Origin: Candidatus Woesebacteria bacterium RIFCSPLOWO2_01_FULL_39_61
Lineage (GTDB): Bacteria; Patescibacteriota; Microgenomatia; UBA8517
DNA: 64,000 nt
Direction: 5' to 3'
NCBI GenBank assembly: GCA_001793155.1
Contig: MGHI01000040.1
Coordinates: 3,209 to 67,208 of the forward strand
Made by a program: the position numbers and the translations under genes. Under the pieces are notes generated by a model. It ran no database searches. It had not been told where the DNA came from and saw nothing but the letters and a program-made list of their open reading frames with translations. Position 1 is the first letter of the stretch. Each line of letters opens with the position of its first letter. Shown here piece by piece: positions 16,392-58,400 of the stretch.

Positions 16392-17717
16392 ATGAAAATA
16401 CTAAAATTAGCTTTTCTCCCAGTCACCACCCTGCTTATCTTTTTATATCTTTACGGAGCGATCCAACATTCTAACTTAATAAACATAAGAACACGTACGG
16501 GAGATCTTGATCACGGCGACCAAGGGGCGTATATAGAGGTAATTAAAAAAACCTATAACGAGAGCTTCAGATTTCTCGGCGATAGAAATAGAATGCCTCT
16601 TTATACTACTTTCCAAGCCATATTTTATACACCGGGCATAACCGATGAACGACTCTTCGCTCAAGCTAAGTTGATCAATATATTTTTTTCAATCTTTCTT
16701 ATCTACCTCATGTTTATCTTTAATCGAAGATACATTTCTAAACTAAGCAATATTGTATTTACACTGATTATTGGCTTTTCTGTCTTTTTGCCCCGGTCCG
16801 CCTATGTACAGCCCGAACTTCTTTACTTCACATTAAGTTTTTTTGCATTTGTGTATTTTTGTAAAACTATCAAACACAAAAAGGTTGCTGATGTTGTCTT
16901 CGCGGCAATCCTGGCTGTGGCGGCTTATATGACAAAGGCTTCGATGCTCCTGGGGTTTGGATTTTTTATCTTTTTTCTTTTTCTGTCCGGCTTAAAGGGA
17001 TACAGAATTAAGAGGATGTTGGCAATTCCGATAATCGCCTTAATAATTTTTTTATCGCTCGTATCTCCATACCTTATTCAAACCAAAAAACTTTATGGAG
17101 GTTATTTTTTCAATTACGCAACTACTTATATGTGGAGTCAGAACTGGGATGAGGCGTTAACCGTCGATAAAAAATTGCGAAATATTGAATACATAAGATC
17201 GCTGTCAAAAGATCAGCTACCGTCATTGGGCAGATACATTAAGGAACGCTCCGCCTCCGATATGAGCTTGCGTATGTTTACCGGCATCATTCTAAATATA
17301 GGTATACTTTTAGGAACGTACGCAACCCTTTCCTCCGCAATTCTTATTTTATACATTCTCTTTTTAATTTATTTTATTTTTTCCAGTATAAGGCTGGATA
17401 GCTTTCGAAGATTCTTAAATCAAAATAAGGCTGTAATAATTTTTATTTTAGGTTATCTTCTTTCATATTTCTTCGCGTTTTCCTGGTATGCTCCGATTGG
17501 TGCCGGCCCAAGGTTTACCTTTACCACTTATATACCCGCTCTTTTTTCTGTCCTTTATCTATCTGAAAAGCTTAGCATTAAGGGAGAAGTTTCAAAATTT
17601 AATCCTATTAGTACTCAACTTTTTTATTTAACTCATATAGCTTCATTTATCATCTTATTTTTGGGAGTAAAAGGCCTAATCTTTCCCTATCTTTTCACTT
17701 CATGGGCTGGGTTCTAG
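16392..17717 (+). CDS. Polytopic membrane protein, GT-C-like glycosyltransferase candidate
   Basis: 441 aa, >10 TM helices, PMT/ArnT-like architecture. Confidence 0.45.
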   Translation: MKILKLAFLPVTTLLIFLYLYGAIQHSNLINIRTRTGDLDHGDQGAYIEVIKKTYNESFRFLGDRNRMPLYTTFQAIFYTPGITDERLFAQAKLINIFFSIFLIYLMFIFNRRYISKLSNIVFTLIIGFSVFLPRSAYVQPELLYFTLSFFAFVYFCKTIKHKKVADVVFAAILAVAAYMTKASMLLGFGFFIFFLFLSGLKGYRIKRMLAIPIIALIIFLSLVSPYLIQTKKLYGGYFFNYATTYMWSQNWDEALTVDKKLRNIEYIRSLSKDQLPSLGRYIKERSASDMSLRMFTGIILNIGILLGTYATLSSAILILYILFLIYFIFSSIRLDSFRRFLNQNKAVIIFILGYLLSYFFAFSWYAPIGAGPRFTFTTYIPALFSVLYLSEKLSIKGEVSKFNPISTQLFYLTHIASFIILFLGVKGLIFPYLFTSWAGF

Positions 17718-30947: not shown

Positions 30948-31216
30948 ATATAAAGTGTATCATCGGGAGTTCGAAAATAGTCCGATTAAACGTTTTGGGG
31001 CGGTGCCTAGTTGACTATGTTGGAACCTTTTTTAAAGAACAACTTGAAAGTATTTCCATTACTCCACGGCCAAGATTGGCACTGCAACGAGTCTGATTAT
31101 ACTAAATTCGGGCACGCATTAGTAAGCGAACTTCGAACTTTATGATATTAGGTTGATGGATATTTCTCAAAAAGTATTCGAAGCCTTGCAGAAAGAATTG
31201 GAGGTTTAAGCTATGG

Positions 31217-32548
31217 TTATAGCTTTAATACATAACTTTCATAACCATTGTATGGCTGTGTTTTGCCTTCAAAATTCACATTTATCTTTAACTCAGATTC
31301 TCCACTTCCAGTAAATGTTATGTTTTTAGTCAACTCACGAGATTGTCCAGAAGTCAAATCTATATTTTGAAAGTTCTCGGTGGCTAAAACTTTCACCTCA
31401 CCATCTGTGGTGAAGCCATCATTTGTTCTTTTGTAGGGGGTTTGTGAAATTGACAAAGATTTTAGAACAGCATTCTCTTTACTAACATTCGTCAGCTCAA
31501 TATCAAAGACATTACTAACTCCACTCTTGATTGGTCTTTTATACTTAATCTTCATCACAATCTTATTACTGTAACGCAAATCACTCCATATAAGCCCTTG
31601 TTCTGATGGATATTCTGTGGGAGCATATAAACTACTTTCAAAGACCAGTAAATCACCATCAAGCTTAACCTCTGAATTTATAGAATAGTTTTCACCTTTG
31701 GAACGGAAATCGCAATCTTTCACTGGTTCTTCTCTATGCGTTTGTCCTTCTCTTAAAGACCATAAACCAGCTTGAGAACATTCTCCATTATTGAAGTTTG
31801 CTACATACTTTCCATCTTTCAAAAATTCGATTTCAGTTGGTAATCTAAATAAATCTAAATCGTTAGTTTTCTTCCATTTTTTTGCTGTAAGCTTGTTAAA
31901 TAAATCAGAAGTATTTACCCTCGGCAGGTTATCAGCTGTATATGTGTTACCACTATCTGTAATCGCTTCACATTTACCTAACCTTTCACCTGCCAATGAA
32001 ATTCGGTCACTTTTTATTACAAATCCCCAAGCGTCACCAGAACTTAAAAAGATTACTCCTGAATCTGAACCGCTTGCTTCAAAGTTCCAATTACCTTGAC
32101 CTGAACCTTCTGGATAATCTGAAAAGTGTGACCATTTGTAAGTTCCGTTTTTAGTAAAAGCGTAGTTTTTTGCAGTAGGTGCAAGCATACTTTTCCCTGA
32201 AATATCATCTTTATTGCACCAAGTGTTAGCAGTCAGTTTATCAAACAGAGTTCCTTTGTCTAAACTTGAAGCTGTTGGCTGCGAAGATGTCGTATCAAAG
32301 TTAGATGGAATACTTTTATTTGATAACTTTGTGGGTAACAGATTAGATTTTGTAGCAAGCAAATAACCAACTACCCCAATTACTGTCACAAGAAATAAAA
32401 CTCCCAAAATGATGAGAATTGAGCCTTTTTGGTTTTTTATTAGACTTCGGAAAGTGGATTGAGATTGAATTAGTGATTTAGAAGGATTTACAGGCTGATT
32501 ATAATTGTCCACTTCCATATAGTTATAGTATTTCAAATACGAGGGCAA
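31217..32548 (-). CDS. Hypothetical membrane-anchored extracytoplasmic protein
   Basis: 443 aa. N-terminal signal-anchor helix (ILIILGVLFLVTVIGVVGYLL), then a beta-rich Ser/Thr/Asn-rich domain. Confidence 0.45.
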   Translation of the reverse strand: MPSYLKYYNYMEVDNYNQPVNPSKSLIQSQSTFRSLIKNQKGSILIILGVLFLVTVIGVVGYLLATKSNLLPTKLSNKSIPSNFDTTSSQPTASSLDKGTLFDKLTANTWCNKDDISGKSMLAPTAKNYAFTKNGTYKWSHFSDYPEGSGQGNWNFEASGSDSGVIFLSSGDAWGFVIKSDRISLAGERLGKCEAITDSGNTYTADNLPRVNTSDLFNKLTAKKWKKTNDLDLFRLPTEIEFLKDGKYVANFNNGECSQAGLWSLREGQTHREEPVKDCDFRSKGENYSINSEVKLDGDLLVFESSLYAPTEYPSEQGLIWSDLRYSNKIVMKIKYKRPIKSGVSNVFDIELTNVSKENAVLKSLSISQTPYKRTNDGFTTDGEVKVLATENFQNIDLTSGQSRELTKNITFTGSGESELKINVNFEGKTQPYNGYESYVLKL

Positions 32549-32895
32549 AATACAATGAGTTTTTCATAGGGGGTATACCACCCCATTTTTGACCATCCAA
32601 AACCCATTATGACCTTTCTCCAATCCGTAGCATATTTTTGAAAACTGGTAATTGCTGAACTCGTGCTTCAAGGGTATCTTTTGGTACCCTTAACTTCACA
32701 CTATGTAAGTCCGCACCATCATTATATTAAGTACTCTAATATAATAGTTATATTGATAAGTATAAAGAGATATACGCCATGCTATTTTGACAAGTGTTAG
32801 CTTCAAAGGTCTTAAATATGCTTGTGTCTCTATAAAACTTCTGAAAGTTATGGGACTTTAAGCTATAATCAGAGCACAAATTAGATGGAAATGGT

Positions 32896-33468
32896 ATGGA
32901 TAATAAAGTTAATAGTGAAGCAATCAGTCTTGTTAAAAAAATCCTAAGAATAACTTCTCCTACTGGTAAGATACCAGCATTAATTATCCAACCACGCAAT
33001 AAAGTAACACGAAATAATAGTAATGCAATTTATTATTCAAACCCCCATGTCATAGATTTCCTGGTGTCAGAAAGTGTAATTAGAGTTATCAATATCTTAA
33101 AGAAAGATGCTGCCCCAAAGGATTTTTCATTCAAAGTTTCTTTTAGGAGAAATGAGGCAGAAGAATTCCTGTATGTTATTTGTCATGGAGACTTCTCCTG
33201 GGATAAAAGAGATGGAACTTGGACTTACAAAGACAGGTCATATCCTTTTAAGCTGGGTACTGGACAATATAGGTTGATAAATCTATTTATGGAGAATCAG
33301 AATACTCACTTTACGGAGGATGAGATTATTACAACTTACAGTTCAAAAAGAGAAGACGATATTAAACGATTGACAAATGACTTAATAAAAGAAATTAGAA
33401 GGCCGTTGAAGATACCGAAAAAGCACTTCATTCCTGGAGATGGCTATATCTTCAAACCCATCCTTTGA
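32896..33468 (+). CDS. Hypothetical protein with C-terminal winged-helix (OmpR/PhoB Trans_reg_C-like) segment
   Basis: 190 aa. C-terminal YRLINLFMENQNTHFTEDEIITTYS...DIKRLTNDLIKEIRRPL resembles the wHTH of OmpR-family effectors. Confidence 0.35.
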   Translation: MDNKVNSEAISLVKKILRITSPTGKIPALIIQPRNKVTRNNSNAIYYSNPHVIDFLVSESVIRVINILKKDAAPKDFSFKVSFRRNEAEEFLYVICHGDFSWDKRDGTWTYKDRSYPFKLGTGQYRLINLFMENQNTHFTEDEIITTYSSKREDDIKRLTNDLIKEIRRPLKIPKKHFIPGDGYIFKPIL

Positions 33469-33545
33469 TATTCCTTAATCTTCTCCAATTCTTCCCCAAT
33501 TAATTTCGTATCAACTTCGCAAAATATCGCCTATTCTTCCAGTAT

Positions 33546-33740
33546 ATGGGAAGCTCGCAATCCATTACCTGGTTGAGTCTTGAACTTCAAGAGGAAATTA
33601 GAAAGCACTTCCAGCCTAAGTACAAACAGCCATTAACTGACGAACGAGTAATAAGAATTGCCGATAATCTGACCTCTGTAATGGAAGTTTTGCTCAAGAT
33701 GAGATGGAGACAAAAGTATGGAAATCTTTCAAGACCTTAA
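33546..33740 (+). CDS. Hypothetical small protein
   Basis: 64-aa ORF, no recognisable family. Confidence 0.3.
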   Translation: MGSSQSITWLSLELQEEIRKHFQPKYKQPLTDERVIRIADNLTSVMEVLLKMRWRQKYGNLSRP

Positions 33741-34089
33741 TATCACAGAACCATTTATTCAGAAACACTTCATTAAGTATCCACAGGCCTCTATAAGTTT
33801 TGTCTTTCGCAAGTTGAGAAACAGGCAAAGTTTGTCTTTCTTTGGTGATTATCCCCTCATTTCAGTTGTTGTTGCGACCATGCGAGAAATGGGCATTCCT
33901 GTCAAAAGAAGGATGCTCCGTAAAACTTTTAATCAATCGAAGGAATTGAGGGGGAAGATTACACTTCTCGACCAACTTTTAAGTGATGAAATCCCGCACA
34001 AAGATTTAGCTGGAATACCCTACAACACACGATATAGTGGCAAGACGACTATTGCATCATCCAAAGGAGGAAATGCCCATGAAATCTGA
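33718..34089 (+). CDS. Hypothetical protein
   Basis: 123-aa ORF, no recognisable family. Confidence 0.3.
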   Translation: MEIFQDLNITEPFIQKHFIKYPQASISFVFRKLRNRQSLSFFGDYPLISVVVATMREMGIPVKRRMLRKTFNQSKELRGKITLLDQLLSDEIPHKDLAGIPYNTRYSGKTTIASSKGGNAHEI

Positions 34090-34315
34090 TTTTTTTATTA
34101 CAAAAGACCTGGGACTTTCAGGAGCCTTACATTCAAAAGGAGTAAAACTCGTGCGAGTAGATAGGCAGGGGAAATTGTGTTTCTTTGTATTTGAGAATCG
34201 TTCTTTATGCGAATCACTCCAGCAACAGTTTTATGCCAAAACTCTTGATGTAGATGCTTTGGAATATACAAACAGCTTGAGGGTCTTAAAAGACCTTGTT
34301 TTTTCAAGGAGTTAA
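34079..34315 (+). CDS. DUF5659-like small phage-associated protein
   Basis: Start moved to the ATG at 34079, which has RBS AAGGAGG 9 nt upstream. MKSDFFITKDLGLSGALHSKGVKLVRVDRQGKLCFFVFEN...VDALEY..SLRVLKD matches the DUF5659 pattern (TkDLyLaa.L...G.kL..i.r.g....FvFe). Confidence 0.45.
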   Translation: MKSDFFITKDLGLSGALHSKGVKLVRVDRQGKLCFFVFENRSLCESLQQQFYAKTLDVDALEYTNSLRVLKDLVFSRS

Positions 34316-34327
34316 GCTAAAGAAATT

Positions 34328-34639
34328 ATGGAAATGTCAGATGAACATGTCAAAATCCGAGTTTTTATTAAAGACAAGGGCAACTTGTTAGCGAATGCGA
34401 CTATATCCCTTGAAACCGTATATTTTGGTTTTATTACAATCAAAGACTTTCAAATCTGGCGAAGTCAAAATCTCAACAGCAGACTCCAAGAATACATCAA
34501 CATCAAACCTCTACAGAGAAATGTTTATGGCAAGTGGCTAGACAGAGTATTTTTTGAAGATACAGAGAAATGGTACGAGCTAGAAGCAAAAATTTACGAT
34601 GCTTATTTTATGGCTCGAAGTAAAGCAAGTGATAAGTGA
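34328..34639 (+). CDS. SpoVG-like small protein
   Basis: 103 aa. MEMSDEHVKIRVFIKDKGNLLANATISLETVYFGFITIKDFQIW aligns with the SpoVG N-terminus (ME.TDV.L.RV...GRMRA.ASITLD.EFVVH.IRVIDG). Confidence 0.4.
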   Translation: MEMSDEHVKIRVFIKDKGNLLANATISLETVYFGFITIKDFQIWRSQNLNSRLQEYINIKPLQRNVYGKWLDRVFFEDTEKWYELEAKIYDAYFMARSKASDK

Positions 34640-34924
34640 ACATAGTAACTATGTAGGATATAGGAACCAGTATAGTAACGCTTTCCCTTACAAGGAAATC
34701 TTGCTTATTACTTTATAGAGTTCGTTACTTTATTAGTCATTGTTACTTGTTAGTTATAGTTACTGTAGTGTTTCAAGTAAGATTATGAGATTAAATATAG
34801 CTTGCAACCGAACCTAAAACTTGAGATAATGAGACTGTGCTCAGGGAAATAGGTGAAGTTTTTTAATGCCCTCGTAGGACAGGACTTCACCGTTCTGAGC
34901 ACAACCTGCGGGGGCATTTAAGTT

Positions 34925-36436
34925 ATGGACAAACTTATACACATTCAGTATTCAAGGAAATCATCAGAGGAAGAAGAACGCCAAGCATTATCTATCGAGG
35001 CACAAGAAAGAGAACTGACAGACTTTGCTGACAGGGTTAAGTTTGAAGTAATAAAACCACGACTGGTTGAGACAAAATCTGCACACAAACCTGGTCGTGG
35101 AATCTTCAACGAGATGCTAGACAAAATTGAACGAGGTGAAGCTAATGCAATCCTTTGTTGGAAGTTAGACAGACTCGCTCGCAATGCTCTTGATGGTGGG
35201 AGAATTGTGTGGTTGATGGATGAAGGCAAATTGAAACAGATAGATACTCCCTACAAATCATTTAAAAATACTGCTGACGATAAGTTTTTGATGAGCATTG
35301 AGTTTGGTATGAGTAAGAAATACTCTGATGATTTAAGCGACAATGTTAAACGAGGAATTAGACAAAAGTACGAGCTTGGACAATACCCAAATCTTGCACC
35401 AATTGGTTACATCAACATGAAGATTGATGGTGTAATTAACATCTACCCAGACCCAGAACGCAAAGATTTAGTTATCAGAATCTTCGTTGAATATGCTACT
35501 GGAAAGTACTCACTTGGAGGATTAACTGATATGGTTTTCAAGTGGGGTCTAAGAACTCGAAGGAATAAACCAATCAGTAAATCTCATCTTCACAGAATCT
35601 TGCAAAATCCCCTGTATCATGGCCAATTTGAACATGGTGGAGAGTTACACAATGGCAGCTACGAACCACTCATCACAAAGAAATTATTTGATGATGTTCA
35701 GGCAGTATTAAACGACAGAAGTAAACCGAAGAAGATTGATAATGAATGGCCGTATGCTGGACTTATCAAATGTGGTTGCGGATGTGGTGCATCAGTTATC
35801 TTTGAAACAAAGAAGAAGTATTATAAAAAGACTGATAGAAATGCTGAATATACTTACGCACGTTCAAGCAGAAGATGCAGCAAATGTGCTCAACAAGGGA
35901 TAACTCTTAAAGAACTTGAGCAGATGATTGACGAGAAACTAATTCCTGTCTCAATTGATGAGGATACTTGGAGATTGGGAATTAAACTCCTTAATGCGAA
36001 GTACGATTCAGAGGCGAAACACAGAGCACAAGTTGTTGAAAGTCAACAAAGACAGTACCAGAGAATCCAATCTGAACTTGATGGATATTTTAAGATGCGG
36101 GCACGGGAGGAGATGACAAGCGATGAGTTTGTTGCCAAAAAGAAAGCAATTCTGGAAGAACAGGCAAAATTGAAGGACAAGATTAACGAAGGTTTGGAGG
36201 GTCAAAGGACTTGGTTGGAACTTGCTGAAGATTTCTTTACAACTGCTTACGAGGCACGGAACGTACTTAATAGTGATATTTTGGAAGACAAACGAATGGC
36301 AGTTAAAAAGATTGGTTGGAACCTCTTGTTAATGAACGAAAAGCTCGTCTGGACGTACCAAGAGCCCTATGATGTACTCCTAAAACCCACTTATCGTTCT
36401 GACCTGCGGAGACGAGAGGATTCGAACCTCTGGTAA
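34925..36436 (+). CDS. Large serine recombinase (phage-integrase type)
   Basis: 503 aa. N-terminal resolvase catalytic domain (IQYSRKSSEEEERQALSIEAQ...KSAHKPGRGIFNEML...LCWKLDRLARN), recombinase domain, Cys-rich zinc ribbon (CGCGCG...CSKC), and a C-terminal coiled coil. The 3' end overlaps tRNA-Ser(UGA). Confidence 0.85.
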   Translation: MDKLIHIQYSRKSSEEEERQALSIEAQERELTDFADRVKFEVIKPRLVETKSAHKPGRGIFNEMLDKIERGEANAILCWKLDRLARNALDGGRIVWLMDEGKLKQIDTPYKSFKNTADDKFLMSIEFGMSKKYSDDLSDNVKRGIRQKYELGQYPNLAPIGYINMKIDGVINIYPDPERKDLVIRIFVEYATGKYSLGGLTDMVFKWGLRTRRNKPISKSHLHRILQNPLYHGQFEHGGELHNGSYEPLITKKLFDDVQAVLNDRSKPKKIDNEWPYAGLIKCGCGCGASVIFETKKKYYKKTDRNAEYTYARSSRRCSKCAQQGITLKELEQMIDEKLIPVSIDEDTWRLGIKLLNAKYDSEAKHRAQVVESQQRQYQRIQSELDGYFKMRAREEMTSDEFVAKKKAILEEQAKLKDKINEGLEGQRTWLELAEDFFTTAYEARNVLNSDILEDKRMAVKKIGWNLLLMNEKLVWTYQEPYDVLLKPTYRSDLRRREDSNLW

Positions 36437-36495
36437 CCTCTGCAGGCTACACCGATTTTCAAGATCGGCCCGTTCATCCACTCCGGCACGTCTCC
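36407..36495 (-). tRNA. tRNA-Ser (anticodon UGA)
   Basis: Manual fold: acceptor GGAGACG/CGTCTCC, D-arm CCGGAGTGGATGAACGG, anticodon loop CTTGAAA, long variable arm, T-arm AGAGGTTCGAATCCTCT, discriminator G. Confidence 0.8.
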
Positions 36496-36499
36496 CCGG

Positions 36500-36586
36500 C
36501 GGAGGAGGTGGGATTCGAACCCACGCGAGCTTTTAAGGCTCACGCGCTCTCCAAGCGCGCGGAATGAACCACTATCCGACTCCTCC
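36500..36586 (-). tRNA. tRNA-Ser (anticodon GGA)
   Basis: Manual fold: acceptor GGAGGAG/CTCCTCC, anticodon stem CGCGC/GCGCG with loop TTGGAGA, long variable arm GAGCCTTAAAAGCTC, T-arm GTGGGTTCGAATCCCAC. Confidence 0.75.
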
Positions 36587-36598
36587 GAATATAGCCAA

Positions 36599-37183
36599 TT
36601 ATACCAAACTCTCCTGTATTCCCGAATCTAAAATCTTTTCTGCTTGATCAAGAAATTTTTTCTCTCCAGAAAAGCTAAGCTTTTTTCTTGCCTTCTCAAA
36701 TTCCAACCATTCAACTTTTTCTGTCTCAAATCCAGGACCTTGATGCATATCTTTTATCCATCTCATAAGATAAAAAGTTACAAATTTCAATTTCTTGCCA
36801 CCTTCTTTTGATGTGTAGAAATATCTCTCCGTACCGATTTTTTCTATAATTTTTGCTTCCACACCGCCCTCTTCTCTTACTTCTCTTCGCGCAGCGTTTT
36901 GAAGATCAGCTTCATTTGCTTTTTTCTCTCCCGAGGCCAATGGTCCCGGTTTTTGCCCGTCGTCACAGTCGTCAATCCATCCCTTGGTAAACCTCCAAAC
37001 GTTCCCAGGATAACCCTTGGTGGGACTTGATTTTGCCACTAACCAATATATCCTAACTTTCCTACCTTCCCTTTCTTTTACTTTTTTAAAGACAATTCCT
37101 CCCGCTGAAAATTCCCTGACTATTCCTGGAGCTTGGTTTATATCTAGGGGTTCTTTTTTTTGGCCTTTCTTTCCTTTTTCCAC
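36599..37183 (-). CDS. NUDIX hydrolase
   Basis: 194 aa. Nudix box GEKKANEADLQNAARREVREEGGVEAKI (GX5EX7REVXEEXGV). Confidence 0.7.
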   Translation of the reverse strand: MEKGKKGQKKEPLDINQAPGIVREFSAGGIVFKKVKEREGRKVRIYWLVAKSSPTKGYPGNVWRFTKGWIDDCDDGQKPGPLASGEKKANEADLQNAARREVREEGGVEAKIIEKIGTERYFYTSKEGGKKLKFVTFYLMRWIKDMHQGPGFETEKVEWLEFEKARKKLSFSGEKKFLDQAEKILDSGIQESLV

Positions 37184-37593
37184 TTTTTATATACTCCCCG
37201 TGCTTCCTTCAACATGGTTTTTTCTCTCTTGGAGGAAAGCTTTTTTACAGTCTGTGAGTAATCAAACCAATTGGCATCCGGAAACCCGATTATATCTTTG
37301 GCAAATGACTTTGATAACATTAAATAGTATAGGTATCTTTGGGGAACTATTTTCCCGTTGATATTTGTCACGCCTCCCGCACGCCCGACTTCTTCTAAAA
37401 CTCTGGTCGTCATAAAAGCCTTTTCCCCCATCATACGCAGTGCCGCACGAACGGAAGATTCACCTCTTCTAACCGTTACCTTGGGAATCTCCCAAACATC
37501 ATCGTCTTGATGCTTAATCAAAAACCATTCGGGCTTATTGTGCTGTTCCCTAAAAACAATGGCTCCCGAAACTAAAACTAAATTTTTATTCAT
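37144..37593 (-). CDS. NUDIX-like hydrolase (degenerate Nudix box)
   Basis: 149 aa. GAIVFRE...RRGESSVRAALRMMGEKAF resembles a Nudix fold with a non-canonical box. Overlaps the downstream NUDIX gene by 40 nt. Confidence 0.5.
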   Translation of the reverse strand: MNKNLVLVSGAIVFREQHNKPEWFLIKHQDDDVWEIPKVTVRRGESSVRAALRMMGEKAFMTTRVLEEVGRAGGVTNINGKIVPQRYLYYLMLSKSFAKDIIGFPDANWFDYSQTVKKLSSKREKTMLKEARGVYKKWKKERKAKKKNP

Positions 37594-37602
37594 AACTTTA
37601 CT

Positions 37603-37866
37603 TTAACTTGAGGCACCTTCAAAGTAAAACCTAAGCATCTTCTTAATACTTCTTCTCCCCCAACCACTTTTAAGAAATCTTTCCCTAGCTTTTGCATCTT
37701 TAATTATCAAAAAGCCTTCATAATATATCAATTTATACGGCCTATACAGTTTTGTTGCCAAACTCTCTCCAAAGTTGTGTTCCTTAAGTCTTCTGTCAAC
37801 ATTATCAGTAGAACCGATATATAGACTTCTGTTTACTTCACTTCGAATAATATAGACAAAAAACAT
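37603..37866 (-). CDS. GIY-YIG nuclease family protein (short single-domain type)
   Basis: 87 aa. MFFVYIIRSEVNRSLYIGSTDNVDRRLKEHN with GIY...YIG motifs. Confidence 0.7.
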   Translation of the reverse strand: MFFVYIIRSEVNRSLYIGSTDNVDRRLKEHNFGESLATKLYRPYKLIYYEGFLIIKDAKARERFLKSGWGRRSIKKMLRFYFEGASS

Positions 37867-37934
37867 AGCGTCGCGTAATAAATCAAAGATTTAAACGCGA
37901 CAGCCACGTTTAAATTGCTTGGCAATTTATTACG

Positions 37935-38025
37935 TGGCGGTGGGGACAGGATTTGAACCTGCGCGAGGGGATTAACCCTCAAAGGTTTAGCAAACCTTCG
38001 CCTTAGACCACTCGGCCACCCCACC
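37935..38025 (-). tRNA. tRNA-Ser (anticodon GCU), CCA encoded
   Basis: Manual fold: acceptor GGTGGGG/CCCCACC, D-arm GCCGAGTGGTCTAAGGC, anticodon loop TTGCTAA, long variable arm, T-arm GCAGGTTCAAATCCTGT, 3' GCCA. Confidence 0.8.
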
Positions 38026-38101
38026 CCGGCTAAGCCCCAATTATATCAAAACTGAGCATAGTAGAAAATACGACATTTATGTATAATGTTTTTTAGACAA
38101 A

Positions 38102-38659
38102 ATGGCTGCTCAAACACAAAAAACGGCATCGACTAAGAATCCTCAAGAGGACTACGCGGCTACGCCCCCTCCGCAGCCCATACAACCCGAAAAGGAACTC
38201 TTTGCCTGGCACGCGCCGGCCAGACCTTTCAAAAGGAGGGGTAAGGAATTTTGGATGACAATAATAGCAATAGCATCACTATTTAGTTTTATCTTGTTCC
38301 TGGCCGAAGGCGCAATGCCGGTAATTCTTATCGTTTCGGTCATTTTTCTTTTTTATGTTTTATCAAACGTCGAACCTGAAGAGATTCAATATAAAATAAC
38401 AACCAGAGGAATAAGGGTGGTAGGAAGACTGACCGACATGATGCTTATTTCCAGATTCTGGTTTTCAAAAAGATTCGATAAGGACCTACTTATTTTGGAA
38501 ATCTTACAAATACCCGGCAGGCTGGAACTCGTAATAAACGGAAAAGATTTAGAAAAAATAAGGAAAGTATTATCCATCTATCTACCTGAGGAAGAAATTC
38601 CTCCAACCAATTTTGATAAACTCTCGGGCTGGCTCTCAGAAAAACTTCCGGGGAATTAA
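38102..38659 (+). CDS. Hypothetical membrane protein (two TM helices followed by beta-rich domain, PH-like?)
   Basis: 185-aa ORF. Pro-rich N-terminus, TM hairpin (WMTIIAIASLFSFILFLAEGAMPVILIVSVIFLFYVL), soluble C-terminus. Confidence 0.4.
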   Translation: MAAQTQKTASTKNPQEDYAATPPPQPIQPEKELFAWHAPARPFKRRGKEFWMTIIAIASLFSFILFLAEGAMPVILIVSVIFLFYVLSNVEPEEIQYKITTRGIRVVGRLTDMMLISRFWFSKRFDKDLLILEILQIPGRLELVINGKDLEKIRKVLSIYLPEEEIPPTNFDKLSGWLSEKLPGN

Positions 38660-38692
38660 AAATCTTCCCTATTTTTGATAAAATATAACCAC

Positions 38693-38768
38693 GCACCCGT
38701 AGCTTAATGGATAAAGCGTCGGCTTGCGGAGCCGTAGATTGCGAGTTCAACTCTCGCCGGGTGCACCA
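38693..38768 (+). tRNA. tRNA-Arg (anticodon loop TTGCGGA, apparent anticodon GCG), CCA encoded
   Basis: GCACCCGTAGCTTAATGGATAAAGCGTCGGCTTGCGGAGCCGTAGATTGCGAGTTCAACTCTCGCCGGGTGCACCA aligns position-for-position with bacterial tRNA-Arg (E. coli Arg-ACG/CCG). C35 and A73 are present. Confidence 0.7.
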
Positions 38769-38902
38769 CGTCAAACGTGGTAGACAAGCGCTTTCGTCTT
38801 TAATACAAAATTTCTGAAAGAAATTTTGAAAGAAAAGCTGGTAGAGCGGAAAGTATTTTGAAACGGCAGTGAAAGAATACGATCAGCAAACCTATCTTGA
38901 CG

Positions 38903-38950
38903 CGGTGGGTTGTCCGAGTGGTTTAAGGAGCTGGTTTCAAACCCCGCACC
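38903..38950 (+). pseudogene. 5' fragment of a tRNA-Ser-like gene (acceptor 5' strand plus D-arm plus start of anticodon arm), truncated
   Basis: GCGGTGGGTTGTCCGAGTGGTTTAAGGAGCTGGTTT matches the 5' half of the neighbouring tRNA-Ser genes (GGTGGGGTGGCCGAGTGGTCTAAGGCG...). No complementary 3' half follows. Confidence 0.4.
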
Positions 38951-38987
38951 TTTATTTAAGTAAAGAAAATCGTAAATATGTTTAATA

Positions 38988-39074
38988 GGCGGGATGCTGG
39001 AGAGGTCTAACAGGCTGGTCTCGAAAACCATGCGCTTCGTAAGAGGTACGGGGGTTCGAATCCCTCTCCCGCCG
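38988..39074 (+). tRNA. tRNA-Ser (anticodon CGA)
   Basis: Manual fold: acceptor GGCGGGA/TCCCGCC, anticodon stem CTGGT/ACCAT with loop CTCGAAA, long variable arm, T-arm GGGGGTTCGAATCCCTC, discriminator G. Confidence 0.75.
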
Positions 39075-39115
39075 CAGGTAAAGGTGCGGGGCGAATCCTC
39101 TACCCACCGCCCACA

Positions 39116-39787
39116 TTATCGGGATAAAGTTAATCCCCAAACCTCACCGGCTCCGCCTCTTTTGAGAACTCTTCCGACTTCTTTCAGGGTGGTACCAGTT
39201 GTCATAACATCGTCAAATACTACAATACTAGCGCCGTTTAGCTTTTTACTGCTATTCAAAGCAAAGACGTCTTTCAAATTCATCTTTCTTTGTTTCCCTC
39301 TTAGCTCGACTTGGGGTACCGTAGAAGATTTTCTGACGACCTGCTCCGGACTAAAATTCCACCCCATTTTTTCCGCAATTATTTTTCCGATCCTTTCCGA
39401 TTGATTAAATCCTCTCCAGCGCTCACGCCGCATGTACAAGGGAACCGGAACTAGGATTGTGTTGGACGGAAGTGCGTGAACATTGGTCTTCAAATAATGT
39501 ACGGTGTAAACTGCCAGTTCGTCGGCAATTTCATATGCAAAATTGTACTTTAATTTCAAAATCGACTGACGAATTACTTTTTCGTATTCCCAGATAGATA
39601 CTGCTCCGTCTAATCCCCAAGGTCTTTTGCACTTTATGTGAGTGAATCCGTCAACTGACGGTTTTTCGCATTCGACACAAATTTGCCTTACCAGTCTTAC
39701 TTTCCCTAAACAAGCCGGGCAAAGGAAATAATTTTTCATCCTGCAGCCTAAACAAAACTTTGGAAAGAGGATATCAACTAAGTTCAT
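39116..39787 (-). CDS. comF: ComF family protein (double zinc-ribbon plus phosphoribosyltransferase domain)
   Basis: 223 aa. N-terminal CLGC...CPAC...CVEC...HIKC zinc ribbons. C-terminal PRTase motif IVVFDDVMTTGTTL. Confidence 0.75.
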   Translation of the reverse strand: MNLVDILFPKFCLGCRMKNYFLCPACLGKVRLVRQICVECEKPSVDGFTHIKCKRPWGLDGAVSIWEYEKVIRQSILKLKYNFAYEIADELAVYTVHYLKTNVHALPSNTILVPVPLYMRRERWRGFNQSERIGKIIAEKMGWNFSPEQVVRKSSTVPQVELRGKQRKMNLKDVFALNSSKKLNGASIVVFDDVMTTGTTLKEVGRVLKRGGAGEVWGLTLSR

Positions 39788-39869
39788 AATGAGCTAAAAT
39801 ATAAAAACCTATAAAGTCATTACAAAATGGCTTTATATAACTCGTCGTAGGCTCAAGACGAGTTTCGTA

Positions 39870-40319
39870 ATGAGTTCTATGAAAATTATAAACAGAAAAG
39901 CCTCATTCCATTATAAGATTCTTGAAAAATACGAGGGAGGAATCGTTCTTGGAGGAGGAGAAGTAAAATCTTTAAAAGTGGGAGGGGCTGATATTTCAAA
40001 TTCCTACGCGAAAATCGTCAACGGCGAAGTTTATCTAATCAATGCAAATATACCTATCGAAGGCAAAAGGGACTACAACTCAACAAGGTCGCGCAAAATT
40101 CTTCTTCATAAAAGCGAGATCGTATCTATTAATACCAAGATTAAGGCCAAAAAATTGACCCTTATCCCCCTCAAGATGTATAATAAGGGGCGTTTAATTA
40201 AGATAGAATTGGCTTTAGCCAAACCCAAGCGCGAGTTTGAAAAAAGACAAGCTATTAAAAAGAAAGATCTTGAACGCGAGATTGAACGGGAATTAAGAGG
40301 AGAAAAGAAAATTAATTAA
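39870..40319 (+). CDS. smpB: SsrA-binding protein SmpB
   Basis: 149-aa ORF. ...NRKASFHYKILEKYEGGIVLGGGEVKSLK... and a C-terminal basic tail are typical of SmpB. tmRNA lies immediately downstream. Confidence 0.9.
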   Translation: MSSMKIINRKASFHYKILEKYEGGIVLGGGEVKSLKVGGADISNSYAKIVNGEVYLINANIPIEGKRDYNSTRSRKILLHKSEIVSINTKIKAKKLTLIPLKMYNKGRLIKIELALAKPKREFEKRQAIKKKDLEREIERELRGEKKIN

Positions 40320-40417
40320 CAAAAATTGCATTTGCAATTTTTGAAAGGAGAAGCCAGCGAAAAGCCAATATCCCGAGCTTGTCGAGGGATAAAGGCGTCG
40401 AAGCTAGGCTTCGACGC

Positions 40418-40774
40418 GGGGACGATACAAAAGGTTTCGACGGAAAACGTACTTTGAAATCTGCAAGCCGAGTATAACACTTCTCGTAAATCACGTGTTA
40501 AAAACATAATTGCTGATCGCGATTATAATTACGCCTACGCCTAAAAAACGGACGCGTTGTCTTGCCGGATACGATTCTCAACCGCGCTGGTGAGGCATAA
40601 ACCCAGTTGAGATGCGGAAAGTATGTCTGGTTTTATATACTTTCCCAAGATTTAAAACCAAATTCCTAACTTTTTCTTTGGTTTTTAATTTTAGGAATAA
40701 AACCAAAGCCAAATACGCTTGTAGAAGATTTTAAATTAGTTTTTCGGACGAGGGTTCGAATCCCTCCGTCTCCA
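40418..40774 (+). ncRNA. ssrA: tmRNA (ssrA)
   Basis: 5' GGGGACGATACAAAAGGTTTCGACGG (compare the canonical GGGGCUGAUUCUGGAUUCGACGG). 3' GGACGAGGGTTCGAATCCCTCCGTCTCCA forms the T-arm plus acceptor that pairs with the 5' GGGGACG. An internal tag-like frame GCT GAT CGC GAT TAT AAT TAC GCC TAC GCC TAA (ADRDYNYAYA-stop) is present; the exact resume codon is uncertain. Confidence 0.8.
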
Positions 40775-40840
40775 CACTTCGCTACTTTCAATATGAAAGT
40801 AGCTTCGCGTGGTAAACCACACAGTATTTAAAAACCTTCT
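40767..40840 (+). repeat. Direct repeat X: tmRNA 3' terminus plus downstream flank (also repeated at 42259..42320)
   Basis: CCGTCTCCACACTTCGCTActttcaatatgaaagtaGCTTCGCGtGgtaaACCACAcAGT versus 42259 CCGTCTCCACCACTTCGCTAatGCTTCGCGgtGcaagcACCACAtAGT. Confidence 0.45.
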
Positions 40841-40960
40841 TTACATGATATGCGAAGTGTGTCCCGCGTAGCTTTTTTAGCCAGCGTAGCTTTAGCGAAG
40901 TCGGCAGCGAAGTAGGGCAGTGTTTATAAATTCTTATTTACGGTACGATGAGTAAGTTCA

Positions 40961-41197
40961 ATGTATTTCGTCTATATATTAAAATTGAATAATGGCCAGT
41001 ATTATTCGGGTTATTCGTCAAATCTGAAACAAAGAGTGGTGGATCATAAAAAAGGGAGGATAGACGCAACTAAAAATTTTCGGCCTTTAGACCTTGTTTA
41101 TTATGCAGGTTTTAAGACCCGAAAATTAGCAACTAATTTTGAAAAGTATCTTGAATCAAGCTCCGGTTTTGCTTTCAGGAATAAACATTTAATTTAA
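40961..41197 (+). CDS. GIY-YIG nuclease family protein (short single-domain type)
   Basis: 78 aa. MYFVYILKLNNGQYYSGYSSNLKQRVVDHKKG. Confidence 0.7.
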   Translation: MYFVYILKLNNGQYYSGYSSNLKQRVVDHKKGRIDATKNFRPLDLVYYAGFKTRKLATNFEKYLESSSGFAFRNKHLI

Positions 41198-41378
41198 TTA
41201 TCATGTAAATATCTCTCCCCGACCCCTTTTTGTGCCCGACGGGGTCAAAATGTAAGGTAATATAAGGTTGGAGTGTTCTCTTATAACTGTGGATTCTATC
41301 CACGGTTTCAAGCTTTGCTTACCGAGTCTGACTCGGCCAAGCTATGCTTATAATTCGTGCTAATCGCTTAGCAAAAAA

Positions 41379-55485: not shown

Positions 55486-58400
55486 TTAAGGAGTCGGTGT
55501 TGTAGTCTGAACTGCTCGCCTCTTCTTTTTCTCTTCATCTATTCGTCTTTGTTCTTCTTCGAAAGCTTCGATTTCTTTTGCCATTTTCTTCGATATACCC
55601 CTTCTTGATCTCTCTCGTGGAGCAAAAAGCGTTCCTTCTATATAAATGTCGTATAAAAGGTTCCAATCACTTGTTAATACATCTCTTGCGTGCAACGAGT
55701 CGTAAAGTTGTTTACGCCGTTCTGGGCTCATAAAAAATCGATTATCGGAAAGTACGGAGGTTACTATAGCATTATATGCAGACTCGGGAATATCAAGTAT
55801 TGTTTCTGCTTGTCCGGTAACAAACCCCTTTTCTGGGCTCATTATTAAAGCTGTTGCTCCGAGAAGATAGGCACGATCGGTAAATATCGGAGCCAATTTT
55901 GCATCCCCCCTAACTTTAATCCACTTATCAAGAAAGGATTCCCTCGACAATCTTTTCTTGGGATCCCCGCTCATTTGGTGCCCCTCAAGTGCCACAACAG
56001 CACTGCCAACATCCCAATAATAACCCCACCATTCACCAGCCCTAACTTCATCAAGCACTTTACCGGCGTTTTCATTTCCATTTTCAGTCAGATCAACAAG
56101 CTCAATCGGAACTTCTTTTGTGATTGTTTTTTGTCCTTTTTCAAATTTGATCACGGCTTTTTGTGCAGTCTCGATTGGCACTGCCCTAACATACCTTTCT
56201 TTATCTATAAGTACGTCTGCTATTGAAGTTGATGGGTGCCTGCTTCTTTCTCCCGTCTGCGGATCTGCATATTCTTGCCCTCCCGTATCAATCATCTCCA
56301 ATACACTGTAGAACATCCTCTCCGGAATATAATCTCTTTCGCCTTCGTCAAATTCTTCCCTGAAAGTCGTTCCCTTTTTGGTTTTTCTATCCTTAACACT
56401 GTAATTTTCCCTTGTCCACTCACCTAGGGGACCACCGTATGCGCGTTCTGCGTTTAAGGTTCGTTCCATATCAGCCGCTTTCCGCTCTGCCTCGTCAAGC
56501 TTGTCGGGTGCTATCCGTCCAGCAGCCACATCCTCTCGTATCCGCTTTATCTCTGCCGACTTTCTTTCAAATCTCTTTCTGGCAGAAAGTCGTTCTTTTA
56601 GTTTAAGTCCCGGTGAAAAAAGTTCTCTTACTCCATCCGAAATTGTAGCCGATTCCTGTAGCTTTATAGCATAATCTTTGCGTGTGGGATCATCCTCCTC
56701 CTTAATAGCCTCTGTTTGTGCTCTGTAGACGTCTCCCGAATCATAAGCGCCGGTAGCGTAAAAAAGGTCATCGGCGGCATGAACGGAGGTTTGAATTAAA
56801 TCTTCTACTGTAACCCGATGATCTGTTGCCCATTTTCTAGCTTCTTCCACTTCTTTCTGGTGGTTCTCTAGATTTCTTTCTGCTTTAGTTATTTCCGCAT
56901 CAACATCTTCCCCCTGTACTTTTCTTGTTTTTAAGCTCTCCAATTCATCAATTGATTTCTGCAACCCCTGGTCGCTGAGTCTTTCAGACATCGCCTTCGT
57001 TAAAGCCTTTCTATAAGCGTCAAGGTTCTTTTTATCTGATAAAAGCTGATAGCCTGTTTCCGATAATACAAATTGTTTGAAGTTGAAACCTGTAGCAAAA
57101 TTTAATTTTTCAACCTTCTCTTGCACCTTAACAAGCTCGTCCCCTTGAAATTCTCCCCTTTGTATCTTTTCGGTTAATGTTTTTGCTTCTTCGGCTGCCT
57201 CGGCCCCTACTTTGTCCGGAAAATCTTGGAACACGTCTTTTGCAAGGGTTAAAACCGCCATTCGAAATCCGGGTGTATTATCCCAAGCCTCCCTGAAATA
57301 TTCGCGGGAAAGCCTGGCTCCCTGGGCTTCGATCCAATTTTCGGACGTTTTTGCTCCGGTTAACTCTTTAATATATGAAAGGTAATTGAGCTGTAAAAAT
57401 AGTCTGATTGAATCCTGATATTTCTCCCTATCCTCGTTACTTATCCGGGTGCCGTCCGGTCTTTGTTCAAACCTGAACCAGTACGGGTTGCTCGAATCAA
57501 ACCCTTCGGGGTTTGTAAAAGCCCTGTGCTTCATCGCGTGAACAACGGCCTCGTAACCGGAAAGAAGCGCTCGGTTTTGCTCTACTGCCATCCTATATTG
57601 ACCCTCGGTAAAGTCAGCCATTTTCTTTAATTGTTCAAGCAGTGCATCTCCAGCCACGGCCCCACCAGTAGCAACTTCTGGTTTTCTGTATTTACCCTTT
57701 CCTTGAATAAAGTCGGAGGCGTCTTTTTTTAACTGCGGTCTTTCCTTACCCCATCGTTCGAGATCAATGGTTTTTCCGTACCTGTCAAGGTATAATTTCG
57801 CTTCTTCTGCCACCTTTCTATATTCAGTGGCAGTTTTGGTGTCTCCCGCAGCTTCTGCAGCCAGAGCCGCACCTGGGTAATATTCAAGTTGTGCTTCAGC
57901 AAGATGAAACTCCATTTGATCTAACGCTCCTCCGATATAGGCCGAAGACATTCCCCCAAAATCAACGGTTGATCGATTCAAACTTCTGGTTTCTACTCTA
58001 TGTAGTTCAGATGCGTTTCTACCAAGACCGCCAATTACATCCATTGCATCTATGTAATCATTATCCATTTGAGCCTTTTTTATTTGTACGTTAATCCCCC
58101 GAACCTCACCCGACACCGGATCTGTATGTCTAAAAATTCCAGCGGCTTTTGCTGACTGGACTAAAACTTCATCTCGGGCAAATTTCAGTCCTTCTACCGC
58201 CTTAGCAACCTCATCATCCGTTAAATTTTGTCCGTTTACTGTAAACCCACTTGGTGTATCAACTAAACCCAATAGTCTATTCTGAATTAAAAGAAATAGA
58301 CTTTCGTTGGGATCCTGGGCTTTTTCTCTGTTGATTTCTTCAATTATCCCCATTAACTTTTCGCTGTCTCTAAACTCTACATGTAAGGCTCCGATTGTGG

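Follow-up and report, generated by a model that had tools for sequence, protein, structure and literature searches.

Large-cargo genome engineering relies chiefly on serine integrases, which are considered to target protein-coding genes. The large serine recombinases (LSRs) of phiC31, Bxb1, Listeria A118/LI and SPbeta (SprA/YokA) are built of a resolvase domain, a recombinase domain and a zinc ribbon with a coiled coil, the same architecture as in the LSR described here, and as in our element they act on short att sites with a tiny common core and a motif shifted by 5 bp in attP. The clade to which our LSR belongs differs from this type in that it targets the tRNA 3' terminus, where the universal T-loop provides the half-site motif, in that its attP lies inside the integrase ORF and in that it is confined to Patescibacteria and their phages. 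In the P4-type, mv4 (tRNA-Ser) and pSAM2/AICE systems the integrase gene lies directly next to the 3' end of a tRNA gene that stays functional, and hotspot arrays are formed, as is the case here. However, these systems use tyrosine recombinases, i.e. another family with another chemistry, and duplicate a tRNA segment of 15-60 bp, compared to a 4-bp core here; in contrast to them, no arm-type sites are evident in our element. In SSV1-type integrase splitting and BPs-type mycobacteriophage immunity the C-terminus of an element protein is altered by integration, which results in free and integrated isoforms, as we propose here. The consequence there is gene disruption or the removal of a degradation tag. 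Both depend on tyrosine integrases, whereas here a serine integrase would swap its own tail. Serine integrases have been assigned to tRNA genes before: of 297 S-Int elements, TIGER predicted 14 to lie in t(m)RNA genes, a usage flagged as unreported before and as needing proof (Mageeney et al. 2020, PMC7192596). Those calls, computational like ours, are a handful from complete genomes and, unlike the present case, came without att architecture, clade or CPR connection. The LSR survey of Durrant 2022 nowhere mentions tRNA. A natural clade landing at tRNA 3' ends fills the gap in target choice left by both studies.

The window, i.e. the whole 64-kb stretch of DNA analysed here, comes from a Microgenomates-group CPR bacterium. 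To our knowledge, few mobile elements have been described in Patescibacteria, which are hard to manipulate, and the element presented here offers a first concrete model for small (4.6-11 kb) integrative elements in this group. It is likely that positions 31000-36409 form a 5.4-kb integrative element, which its own LSR has inserted at the very 3' terminus of a tRNA-Ser(UGA) gene; as an explanation of the whole locus this is the best one. The LSR belongs to a large, apparently undescribed CPR-wide clade whose landing sites are tRNA genes. A preliminary description of the locus had also proposed an LSR-driven element at the tRNA-Ser gene's 3' end, and our analysis agrees. It had considered a serine recombinase at tRNA-Ser noteworthy, with which we agree, since serine integrases do not usually target tRNA genes (Mageeney et al. 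2020, PMC7192596). The features of the locus are the following:

30975..31030, + strand: attL, the only P'-PWM match in the 64-kb window; the same core and motif lie upstream of relatives' LSRs
31004..31096, + strand: detached coding segment of the integrase C-terminal tail (CLVDYVGTFFKEQLESISITPRPRLALQRV, then a stop), from attP reconstruction and selection
31217..32518, - strand: cargo gene, 433 aa, between attL and the conserved module
32519..32895, no strand: internal intergenic control region (the "AT-rich gap" of the preliminary description), from the L009 alignment
32896..33468, + strand: 190-aa protein that weakly matches a winged helix at its C-terminus (Pfam Trans_reg_C, E=7e-4, below the cut-off)
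33546..33740, + strand: 64-aa protein with homologues near LSRs
33718..34089, + strand: 123-aa ORF from the ORF list, homologues in 6 of 77 loci
34079..34315, + strand: DUF5659 protein, 78 aa in the public contig (Pfam DUF5659, 27 bits, cut-off 23.6)
34328..34639, + strand: 103-aa ORF, homologues in 8 of 77 loci
34802..34830, + strand: promoter-like site of the integrase gene (TTGCAA, 17 nt, TG-GATAAT), from a consensus scan
34837..34917, + strand: structured 5' leader of the integrase mRNA, a predicted H-type pseudoknot, from covariation and a covariance model
34925..36436, + strand: large serine recombinase, integrated-state form, 503 aa (Pfam, alignment A1, ORF)
36380..36435, + strand: attR, from comparison of Ser-subfamily integrases and motif spacing
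36407..36495, - strand: tRNA-Ser(UGA), the integration target, left intact (ARAGORN and Rfam, 56.5 bits)

As previously noticed, the LSR gene enters the antisense 3' end of the tRNA gene by 30 nt (36407..36436), so that its last 10 codons, nine sense codons (RRREDSNLW) and the stop, are encoded by the antisense strand of the acceptor and T-arm. ARAGORN and Rfam agree on a minus-strand tRNA gene at 36406/36407..36495. Because attL and attR have only GCGG in common, the overlapped tRNA sequence is host DNA: from it the integrated ORF takes its final eight sense codons and its stop (36410-36436), and the ninth overlapped codon, CGG, lies within the shared core. The mature tRNA is unchanged and a replacement tRNA half is not needed. 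The earlier suggestion that the element brings a replacement tRNA 3' end had to be abandoned, given that GCGG is all that the att sites share and that a copy of the tRNA 3' end is absent leftward. The overlap itself is not due to chance, because tRNA-encoded "DSN"-type tails terminate 71 of 120 database homologues, a further 35 of the 120 stop within the acceptor region, and a minus-strand tRNA gene (17 tRNA species) is found at the 3' end of the LSR ORF in 55 of 79 related Patescibacteria loci.

The domain check by HMM that the preliminary description had advised matched Pfam Resolvase (63.9 bits, residues 7-153) and Recombinase (49 bits), and weakly Zn_ribbon_recom (20.4 bits, cut-off 25.3), which is on record for many homologues. 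Y9, R11, S13 and Q20 are invariant among the 39 homologues of alignment A1, R11/S13 being catalytic, and so are the zinc-ribbon residues C283, C287 and C321. The AlphaFold model of the homologue P0008 contains long paired helices (349-452) between beta hairpins. The protein has a resolvase domain with the serine nucleophile and a recombinase domain and, after it, a zinc ribbon into which a coiled coil is inserted, as LSRs do; its closest solved relative is SPbeta YokA/SprA, at low identity (E=5e-11). Conservation of the LSR reaches ...KPTYRSD(LR), and the remaining RREDSNLW and stop come from the host tRNA DNA.

In attL, a host B arm (~30975-30999) is followed by the core GCGG (31000-31003) and the P' arm TGCCTAGTTGACTATGTTGGAACC (31004-31027/31030), which scores 33.7 bits with a leave-out P'-PWM against a shuffle maximum of 17.9. 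In attR, the P arm (~36380-36405) is the 3' end of the integrase ORF, the core occupies 36406-36409 and the host B' arm (36410-36435) consists of the acceptor 3' strand and T-arm of the tRNA. The Ser-subfamily integrase genes all end in ...TAYCGTTCTGACCTGCGG, after which comes whichever tRNA-Ser the host has, and the common core corresponds to tRNA positions 74-71. With attR composed of P arm, GCGG and tRNA, and attL of flank, GCGG and P' arm, the exchange is predicted to take place inside GCGG, with TGCCTAGTTGACTATGTTGGAAC as the P' arm of attL; the crossover dinucleotide is probably GG. Since the core has only 4 bp, the crossover was placed entirely by comparison: in the Ser subfamily the sequence to the left of GCGG (CCT) is common to attP and attR, and that to the right (TGCCTAG) is common to attP and attL. 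The unoccupied tRNA-Ser(UGA) locus would read ...AAACGTTTTGGG, then GCGG.

The T-loop sequence TTCGAAC starts 12 nt past the core in B', and TTGGAAC starts 17 nt past the core in P', exactly 5 bp farther away, which is the known offset between attP and attB of LSRs. Established structural work on LSRs reportedly places the outer half-site motif of attP 5 bp farther from the centre, compared to attB. The 5-bp spacing difference recurs in the related loci L048, L050 and L008. Our sites are short, share the small core GCGG and have the outer motif 5 bp farther out in attP, as expected of an LSR; judged by this geometry, the B' half-site takes its outer motif from the T-loop (TTCGAAC), of which TTGGAAC in P' is the mimic. 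The B arm, formed by the host flank, is not conserved from one host to another, unusually for an LSR attB of 40 bp.

The conserved P' arm cCTaGTTGACTATGTTGGAAC is found upstream of the LSR in the same orientation across relatives, with 27 plus-strand matches and none on the minus strand in ~1.3 Mb. Each is preceded by 4-7 nt that match the 3' terminus of the cognate tRNA; agreement was observed at 20 of 21 testable sites, where chance would give ~1/256 for each. In this comparison the P' arm is kept in relatives and the core of 4-7 nt alone changes with the tRNA occupied. The att architecture of the clade is readable as a 4-7-bp core, a T-loop half-site motif and a conserved P' arm, the analysis gives dozens of predicted attP/attB pairs, and it suggests how specificity could move between tRNA species. 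Elements of 4.4-11 kb in L018, L021, L048, L050, L054 and L062 are flanked by the tRNA 3' end as a long direct repeat. Several loci contain multiple attL-like sites or attP-type junctions beside truncated integrases; therefore, arrays and decay are common and the window copy could belong to an array.

The left end at attL (31000-31030) makes the element ~5.4 kb long and brings the 433-aa cargo gene into it. The preliminary description had placed this end within 32550-32895 or further left: the first option is an internal regulatory region, and the second proved correct. The sole recombinase of the element is of the serine family, not of the tyrosine family as in a classical tRNA-gene island, and in place of a distal direct repeat of at least 15 bp of the tRNA 3' part only GCGG is shared. 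The tRNA 3' 17-mer has no plus-strand copy with up to 3 mismatches in the 64 kb, and a leftward search for its 17- or 32-mer found none; some relatives, unlike the window element, do have repeats of 16-20 bp. At 5.4 kb the element is also too small for a prophage. Structural or packaging PHROG families are missing among its proteins, and PHROG matches are limited to the integrase and two of unknown function (190-aa protein). More distant relatives occur in viral contigs of 30-60 kb.

The preliminary description had noticed neither the position of attP within the integrase ORF, hence the tail change on integration, nor that this is the rule across the large CPR-wide clade. Reconstruction of attP gives a 525-aa integrase. 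Given the position of attP, excision would restore a conserved 32-aa tail, joined in frame in the excised circle, and integration would swap in tRNA-encoded residues. The detached tail segment is 90% identical to that of L009 (the closest related element) and 85% to that of L010, and with a pN/pS of ~0.27 (about 0.2-0.35) its frame appears to be under purifying selection. It matches the tails of attP-form proteins, and the predicted attP 40-mer is present verbatim in the natural contig L197. Full-length attP-form integrases are encoded in the viral contigs L118 and L119 and seen in 7 database proteins; integrated and attP-form copies both occur in nature. Tail exchange would result in two isoforms whose activity, partner binding or stability may not be the same; AlphaFold models the tail with low confidence (pLDDT <50).

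Expression of the integrase may be controlled as well. The -10 box of its promoter-like site is kept in relatives, with invariant ATAAT columns (alignment A3). The leader downstream is predicted to fold into the helices P1 (GUGCUCAG/CUGAGCAC), P2 (GGUGAAGU/ACUUCACC) and P3 (AUGCCCUCG/CGGGGGCAU), and the 3' strand of P3 overlies the presumed ribosome-binding region just 5' of the ATG at 34925. In the alignment of 11 leaders 98.9% of the cells are paired, compared to 35-49% in slid controls, and 14 of the 25 pairs show compensatory changes. The covariance model found the leader in 17 loci, always on the plus strand; a comparison with Rfam gave no match. Such a pseudoknot would gate integrase translation by sequestering the ribosome-binding site, and convergent tRNA transcription may further lower expression in the integrated state. 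The tail swap on integration and the covarying leader are directly testable regulatory ideas. One would go further and suggest, tentatively and with rather more doubt than belief, that the clade reads the invariant acceptor/T-arm geometry of tRNA as half of attB, that retargeting amounts to little more than a change of the 4-7-bp core, and that there are long (excised) and short (integrated) isoforms, with the tail as a state sensor setting directionality or stability and the pseudoknot as a riboregulator of integrase translation.

It could be argued that the element was integrated as described and is now an immobile relic, its integrase being kept for another role or decaying. The element is present in all 24 contigs read, including every one with the flanking genes, an empty attB or a circular attP junction was not found for it, and relatives often contain arrays and truncated remnants of the integrase. 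However, the integrase ORF is complete and lacks none of the catalytic and zinc residues. Both att sites are canonical, conservation extends to the leader RNA, and the detached tail frame is under purifying selection. Additionally, a comparison of the window with L009 gives 57-92% identity for the proteins of the element, far above the hosts' own proteins (at most 35%). We consider a fixed relic unlikely.

It is quite unlikely that the locus is a tandem array of two members, namely an older element from 31004 to ~32620, whose integrase is lost save for its last ~45 nt, and an intact 3.8-kb element, joined via a decayed attP-type junction at ~32590-32645. Arrays or internal attP-type junctions do exist in L010, L035, the L008 remnant and L197, and 32596-32612 is like a P arm (TCC-AAAACCCA-TTAT), with CCGTAGCATATTTTTGAAAAC loosely like P'. 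Nevertheless, the similarity is weak (3% of shuffles, and likewise 3% of genomic windows, attain its score of 20) and the GCGG core is missing there; the outer att sites and the mechanism are unaffected either way. Very improbable is the original proposal of a 3.9-kb element (32550-36495) that begins on the left within the AT-rich gap and brings along a replacement 3' end for the tRNA: nucleotide similarity to L009 does begin at ~32578, the 6-bp TGACCT occurs at 32611 and 36400 and its flank is faintly like the integrase gene 3' end, but chance would be expected to give a 6-mer match, the "scar" similarity lacks significance (its score is attained by 3% of shuffles), no tRNA 3'-end copy exists anywhere leftward, and the family-wide P' arm is missing from the gap and present at 31006, and in L009 and L010 as well it lies upstream of variable cargo, so that 32578 is a boundary between cargo and core module and not an element end.

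Among the other genes of the 5.4-kb element, the 64-aa protein has homologues in 36 of 77 loci, on the LSR strand and 10-1300 nt upstream of the LSR (in most cases 0.3-1.3 kb), and the DUF5659 protein in 33 of 77 loci, 0.4-1.2 kb upstream, being a neighbour in L006 and L008 too. Both are conserved partners of the integrase and the likeliest candidates for directionality factors or regulators. The DUF5659 assignment made earlier holds (27 bits), and the protein would have 92 aa if the GTG at 34037 is taken as its start. The "SpoVG-like" label of the 103-aa ORF found no support, as Pfam, PHROG and PDB searches gave no match. The proposed wHTH protein retains its Trans_reg_C match, although a sub-threshold one; this 190-aa protein has homologues in only 4 of 77 loci and may act either in regulation or in replication initiation. 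The control region in front of it contains a hairpin (AAGGGTA..TACCCTT), AT-rich direct repeats and promoter-like sites at 32841-32869 (+) and others on the minus strand, and its part at 32630-32760 is ~99% identical to L009. The 433-aa cargo protein has no recognisable domain and no match in Pfam and PHROG searches; its slot varies among related elements, with a 120-aa ORF in L009 and three ORFs in L010.

The feature is a serine-integrase element with three unusual and testable properties: it targets a tRNA gene via the T-loop, its attP lies inside the integrase open reading frame (ORF), and it carries a dedicated leader RNA. The preliminary description of a large serine recombinase (LSR) ORF running into the 3' end of tRNA-Ser(UGA) was correct as written, with regard to the ORF, the placement of the tRNA by ARAGORN and Rfam and the overlap of 30 nt. 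The assignment to the serine recombinases was likewise borne out by HMM comparison: the Pfam families Resolvase and Recombinase and, weakly, the recombinase zinc ribbon match the encoded protein, which also matches the PHROG 'integrase' and has the SPbeta large serine recombinase YokA/SprA as its nearest solved relative. Within the overlap, the acceptor and T-arm of the tRNA, read on the antisense strand, supply the final nine sense codons (RRREDSNLW) and the stop codon.

Features of the element and its surroundings (window coordinates)
31000/31004 to 36405/36409: the element, 5,406 bp
Order within the element, left to right: P' arm and tail segment; 433-aa cargo; control region; 190-aa protein; 64-aa protein; 123-aa ORF; DUF5659 protein; 103-aa ORF; integrase
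34837-34917: leader RNA
34925..36436, plus strand: LSR (integrase), 503 aa
36407..36495, minus strand: tRNA-Ser(UGA)
36400-40800, about 4.4 kb: tRNA cluster with tRNA-Ser UGA, GGA, GCU and CGA, tRNA-Arg(GCG), smpB and tmRNA (tag ADRDYNYAYA)

The tRNA-Ser(UGA) gene is the left edge of the cluster, which holds four tRNA-Ser genes, one tRNA-Arg and one tmRNA. Every tRNA-Ser gene there ends with GCGG[AT]G in the + strand sense of the site, and all are therefore potential integration targets, of which UGA only is occupied. Beside the tRNA/tmRNA cluster, at 37603-37866 and ~40900-41200, are two short ORFs with a GIY-YIG domain (87 and 78 aa), which may be homing-endonuclease-like genes.

The overlap with a tRNA is a property of the whole integrase clade. 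Among the 120 best database matches (40-100% identity), the named sources are Microgenomates-group CPR bacteria plus one labelled 'archaeon'. These homologues share the end ...PYDVLLKPxYRSD, which is followed in 71 of the 120 by 'DSNP/ESNP/DSNL'-type tails, that is, by translated GGATTCGAACC, the antisense T-arm; in 35 more the ORF terminates shortly after it enters the acceptor stem, within a few codons. When one genome was scanned for each GTDB species, 79 loci were obtained, nearly all from named or inferred Patescibacteria MAGs (a few bear other or evidently wrong taxon labels), and a minus-strand tRNA was located at the 3' end of the LSR ORF in 55 of them. Seventeen tRNA species are targeted in these 55 loci (Ser, Tyr, Trp, Gln, Asn, Asp, Lys, Leu, Gly, Pro, Glu), and tRNA identity tracks the LSR subclade. 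In viral contigs of 30-60 kb from IMG/VR, more distant LSRs run into tRNA-His, Gly and Thr at the contig ends. Mageeney et al. (2020; PMC7192596) assigned 14 of 297 S-Int elements to t(m)RNA genes, a use that in their words 'has not been reported previously' and is in need of proof. Durrant et al. (2022) analysed protein-coding targets alone and mention tRNA nowhere in the text. In the full-text literature, the coverage of which is incomplete, we found neither the clade nor its att architecture described, nor the tail swap or the leader, so that a prior account is possible.

The preliminary interpretation was partly right. A serine-integrase element at tRNA-Ser stands; the displaced copy of the tRNA 3' end that was expected on the left does not, as the + strand of the whole 64-kb window matches neither the 32-mer from the tRNA 3' end, at 3 mismatches or fewer, nor the 17-mer, at 5 or fewer. 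In inverted orientation, the tRNA-Ser(UGA) 3' 17-mer recurs with 2 mismatches (chance expectation ~0.01) at 56529-56545, in a 1067-aa ORF 20 kb from the tRNA. A crossover deep in the tRNA, in the T-loop, was rejected for the window because the Ser-subfamily genes diverge directly past GCGGAG, each according to its host tRNA. The closest related element is L009, whose integrase is 92% identical to that of the window, and nucleotide similarity to it begins at ~32578. A TGACCT crossover at 32611/36400, with an in-frame tail LSPIRSIFLKTGNC, was rejected as well: chance alone would produce such a shared 6-mer, the site lacks the family P' arm and the local likeness to attP is not significant.

The decisive clue to the putative other end of the element is instead a 107-bp stretch at 31000-31106, which is 85-90% identical in L009 and in the related locus L010 and partially matched in L011 (43 bp, 86%). 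It starts with GCGG-TG-CCTAGTTGACTATGTTGGAACC, a string also present 3' of integrase genes or remnants without an adjoining tRNA (the remnant in L008, and contig L197). In ~1.3 Mb of related loci, a position weight matrix built from the P' motif matched 27 times on the LSR strand, each time upstream of the LSR, and never on the other strand. In the window it gave a single match, at 31006, which scored 33.7 bits against a matrix that excluded this site; the maximum in shuffled windows was 17.9 bits.

The 4-7 nt that precede the P' motif match the 3' terminus of the tRNA found at the LSR end of the same locus in 20 of 21 testable sites, and these cores differ by tRNA: GCGG for Ser, GCAGG(GG) or TGGCAGG for Trp, GCTG/GTTG/GATG for Gln and GCTC for Asn. 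In the Ser subfamily all integrase genes end with ...TAYCGTTCTGACCT-GCGG-AG, followed by the host's own tRNA-Ser, and all attL sites read host flank-GCGG-TGCCTAG. The attP-type junctions of this subfamily read ...TTCTGAYCT-GCGG-TG and continue into a P'-type arm (TGCCTAG in L197, TGTCTGG in the L008 remnant, TGTGCG in L116). Sequence on the left of GCGG is thus tied to the integrase and that on the right to the P' arm, which places strand exchange within GCGG, tRNA positions 74-71 read on the + strand. As GG is the sole non-palindromic dinucleotide in this core, it is the likely crossover dinucleotide.

Reconstructed attachment sites and predicted junction sequences
Reconstructed attB: ...AAACGTTTTGGG-GCGG-AGACGAGAGGATTCGAACC
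Reconstructed attP: ...CTTATCGTTCTGACCT-GCGG-TGCCTAGTTGACTATGTTGGAACC
Predicted attP junction: CTTATCGTTCTGACCTGCGGTGCCTAGTTGACTATGTTGGAACC
Predicted attB junction: GATTAAACGTTTTGGGGCGGAGACGAGAGGATTCGAACC

The 40-nt centre of the predicted attP occurs verbatim in L197, an unrelated metagenome contig. In the B' arm the T-loop sequence TTCGAAC begins 12 nt past the core, and in the P' arm TTGGAAC begins 17 nt past it. An outward shift of 5 bp in attP is a hallmark of large serine integrase sites, known from LSR structural work, and the offset of the P' and B' motifs here is the same. Because acceptor and T-arm lengths are invariant, this geometry is the same for every tRNA. Some subfamilies (L018, L021, L048, L050, L054 and L062) have retained a longer identity with the tRNA, and there direct repeats of 16-20 bp flank elements of 4.4-11.2 kb; in L048 and L050 a GTTGGAAC/GTTGTAAC motif follows past the repeat at the same spacing. 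The host-side B arm is not conserved, which suggests that recognition proceeds mainly via the tRNA half-site.

Two further observations concern these sites. The closest relative with a different tail (P0002 in L115, 1975-2012; 80% amino acid identity) departs from the window after ...CGTTCTGA, seven nt 5' of the GCGG core, and ends with RSEIAYQNCQL*, a tail explained by neither the attP nor the attR configuration. In L089 and L098-L100, JGI metagenome contigs of unrelated organisms with the same tRNA-Ser 3' sequence as the window, a 22-nt copy of the tRNA 3' end (GCGGAGACGAGAGGATTCG) lies ~68 nt downstream of the tRNA and is the signature of another insertion or duplication.

The 3' end of the integrase ORF forms the P arm of the reconstructed attP, and its reading frame runs on into the P' arm; the excised circle would therefore encode an integrase of 525 aa, ending with ...YRSDLRCLVDYVGTFFKEQLESISITPRPRLALQRV. 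Tails related to that of the window (VDYVG[TN][FY][FY].., DDVRTFY.., NFVRTYY.., LVDEVRNYY..) occur in attL sites, in seven full-length database proteins and in two viral contigs in attP configuration. With its first seven codons excluded because they coincide with the DNA site, the tail has pS of ~0.34 and pN of ~0.09 in five close pairs, which indicates that its frame is kept by selection though the tail is detached when the element is integrated. The AlphaFold model of the attP-form homologue P0008 is a canonical LSR with a low-confidence tail containing one short helix. The tail might serve in directionality control, in partner binding or as a degron.

The third property concerns the ~80 nt 5' of the integrase start codon, which are conserved even in 40%-identical relatives. 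Their alignment yields three helices (P1-P3) that form an H-type pseudoknot, with the 3' strand of P3 (CGGGGGCAU) directly before the ATG. In this alignment 98.9% of cells are paired versus 35-49% in slid controls, and compensatory changes were found in 14 of 25 pairs. The covariance model matched 17 loci, on the LSR strand in all, the window's leader has no counterpart in Rfam, and a promoter-like site with a conserved -10 box adjoins it. Covariation in the leader is strong, and the leader appears to be a cis-regulatory RNA motif that is new and peculiar to the integrase clade. An att-like string at 34889-34911 (CCGTTCTGAGCACAACCTGCGG), 5' of the integrase start, was rejected as an integrase-binding mimic, since the 3' strands of P2 and P1 together with the start of P3 account for it better.

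The 433-aa cargo gene of the element lies on the opposite strand and its slot carries different genes in L009 and L010; the 190-aa protein has a weak winged-helix match, and comparison with PHROG revealed no phage structural genes in the element. The 64-aa family (36 of 77 loci) and the DUF5659 family (33 of 77) are same-strand companions of the integrase, and either is an obvious candidate directionality factor or regulator. Noncoding 32630-32760, within the control region, is ~99% identical to L009 versus ~82% elsewhere in the element. A perfect hairpin of 7 bp (AAGGGTA..TACCCTT) lies in this stretch together with AT-rich direct repeats (TATATTAAGTA / TATATTGATAAGTA), and the stretch may serve as an operator or origin. 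Proteins of the element share 57-92% identity with those of L009, whereas host proteins with a detectable match are only 30-35% identical, a difference that argues for horizontal movement rather than shared descent.

Searches for the element in other states covered several sources. Neither the predicted attB with a flexible gap nor the tRNA 3' 27-mer (27 contexts, all unrelated) revealed an empty site in the JGI metagenomes, two attP patterns gave no circular junction of the window's element in IMG/VR, and exact-protein look-up of both flanking genes returned occupied loci only. As neither an empty site nor a circular junction was found for this exact element, its present activity is inferred. 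The related contig L006 was rejected as a circular mini-element, as terminal overlap is absent. The tRNA-side metagenome contig L005 stops 29 nt inside the integrase 3' end (window ~36377), and this end may be an assembly-graph branch hinting at population heterogeneity at the junction.

Relatives often form arrays or leave truncated integrases beside attP-type junctions. L010 (11467-16414) is a tandem of a related element's integrase, a degenerate P'-like arm and a second island, which contains a HAD hydrolase, a nucleoside hydrolase and a 445-aa LSR (only 38% identical) and ends ~250 nt before tRNA-Ser(GGA); at 16500-16660 of the same locus, a second tRNA-like sequence appears to enclose or interrupt a tRNA. 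A second leader and an integrase-sized gap lie upstream of an attP-type junction in L035 (3924-5600), a leader without integrase is present in L043 (5813-6100), and in L008 (1400-1500) and L197 P' arms are fused to truncated integrase 3' ends.
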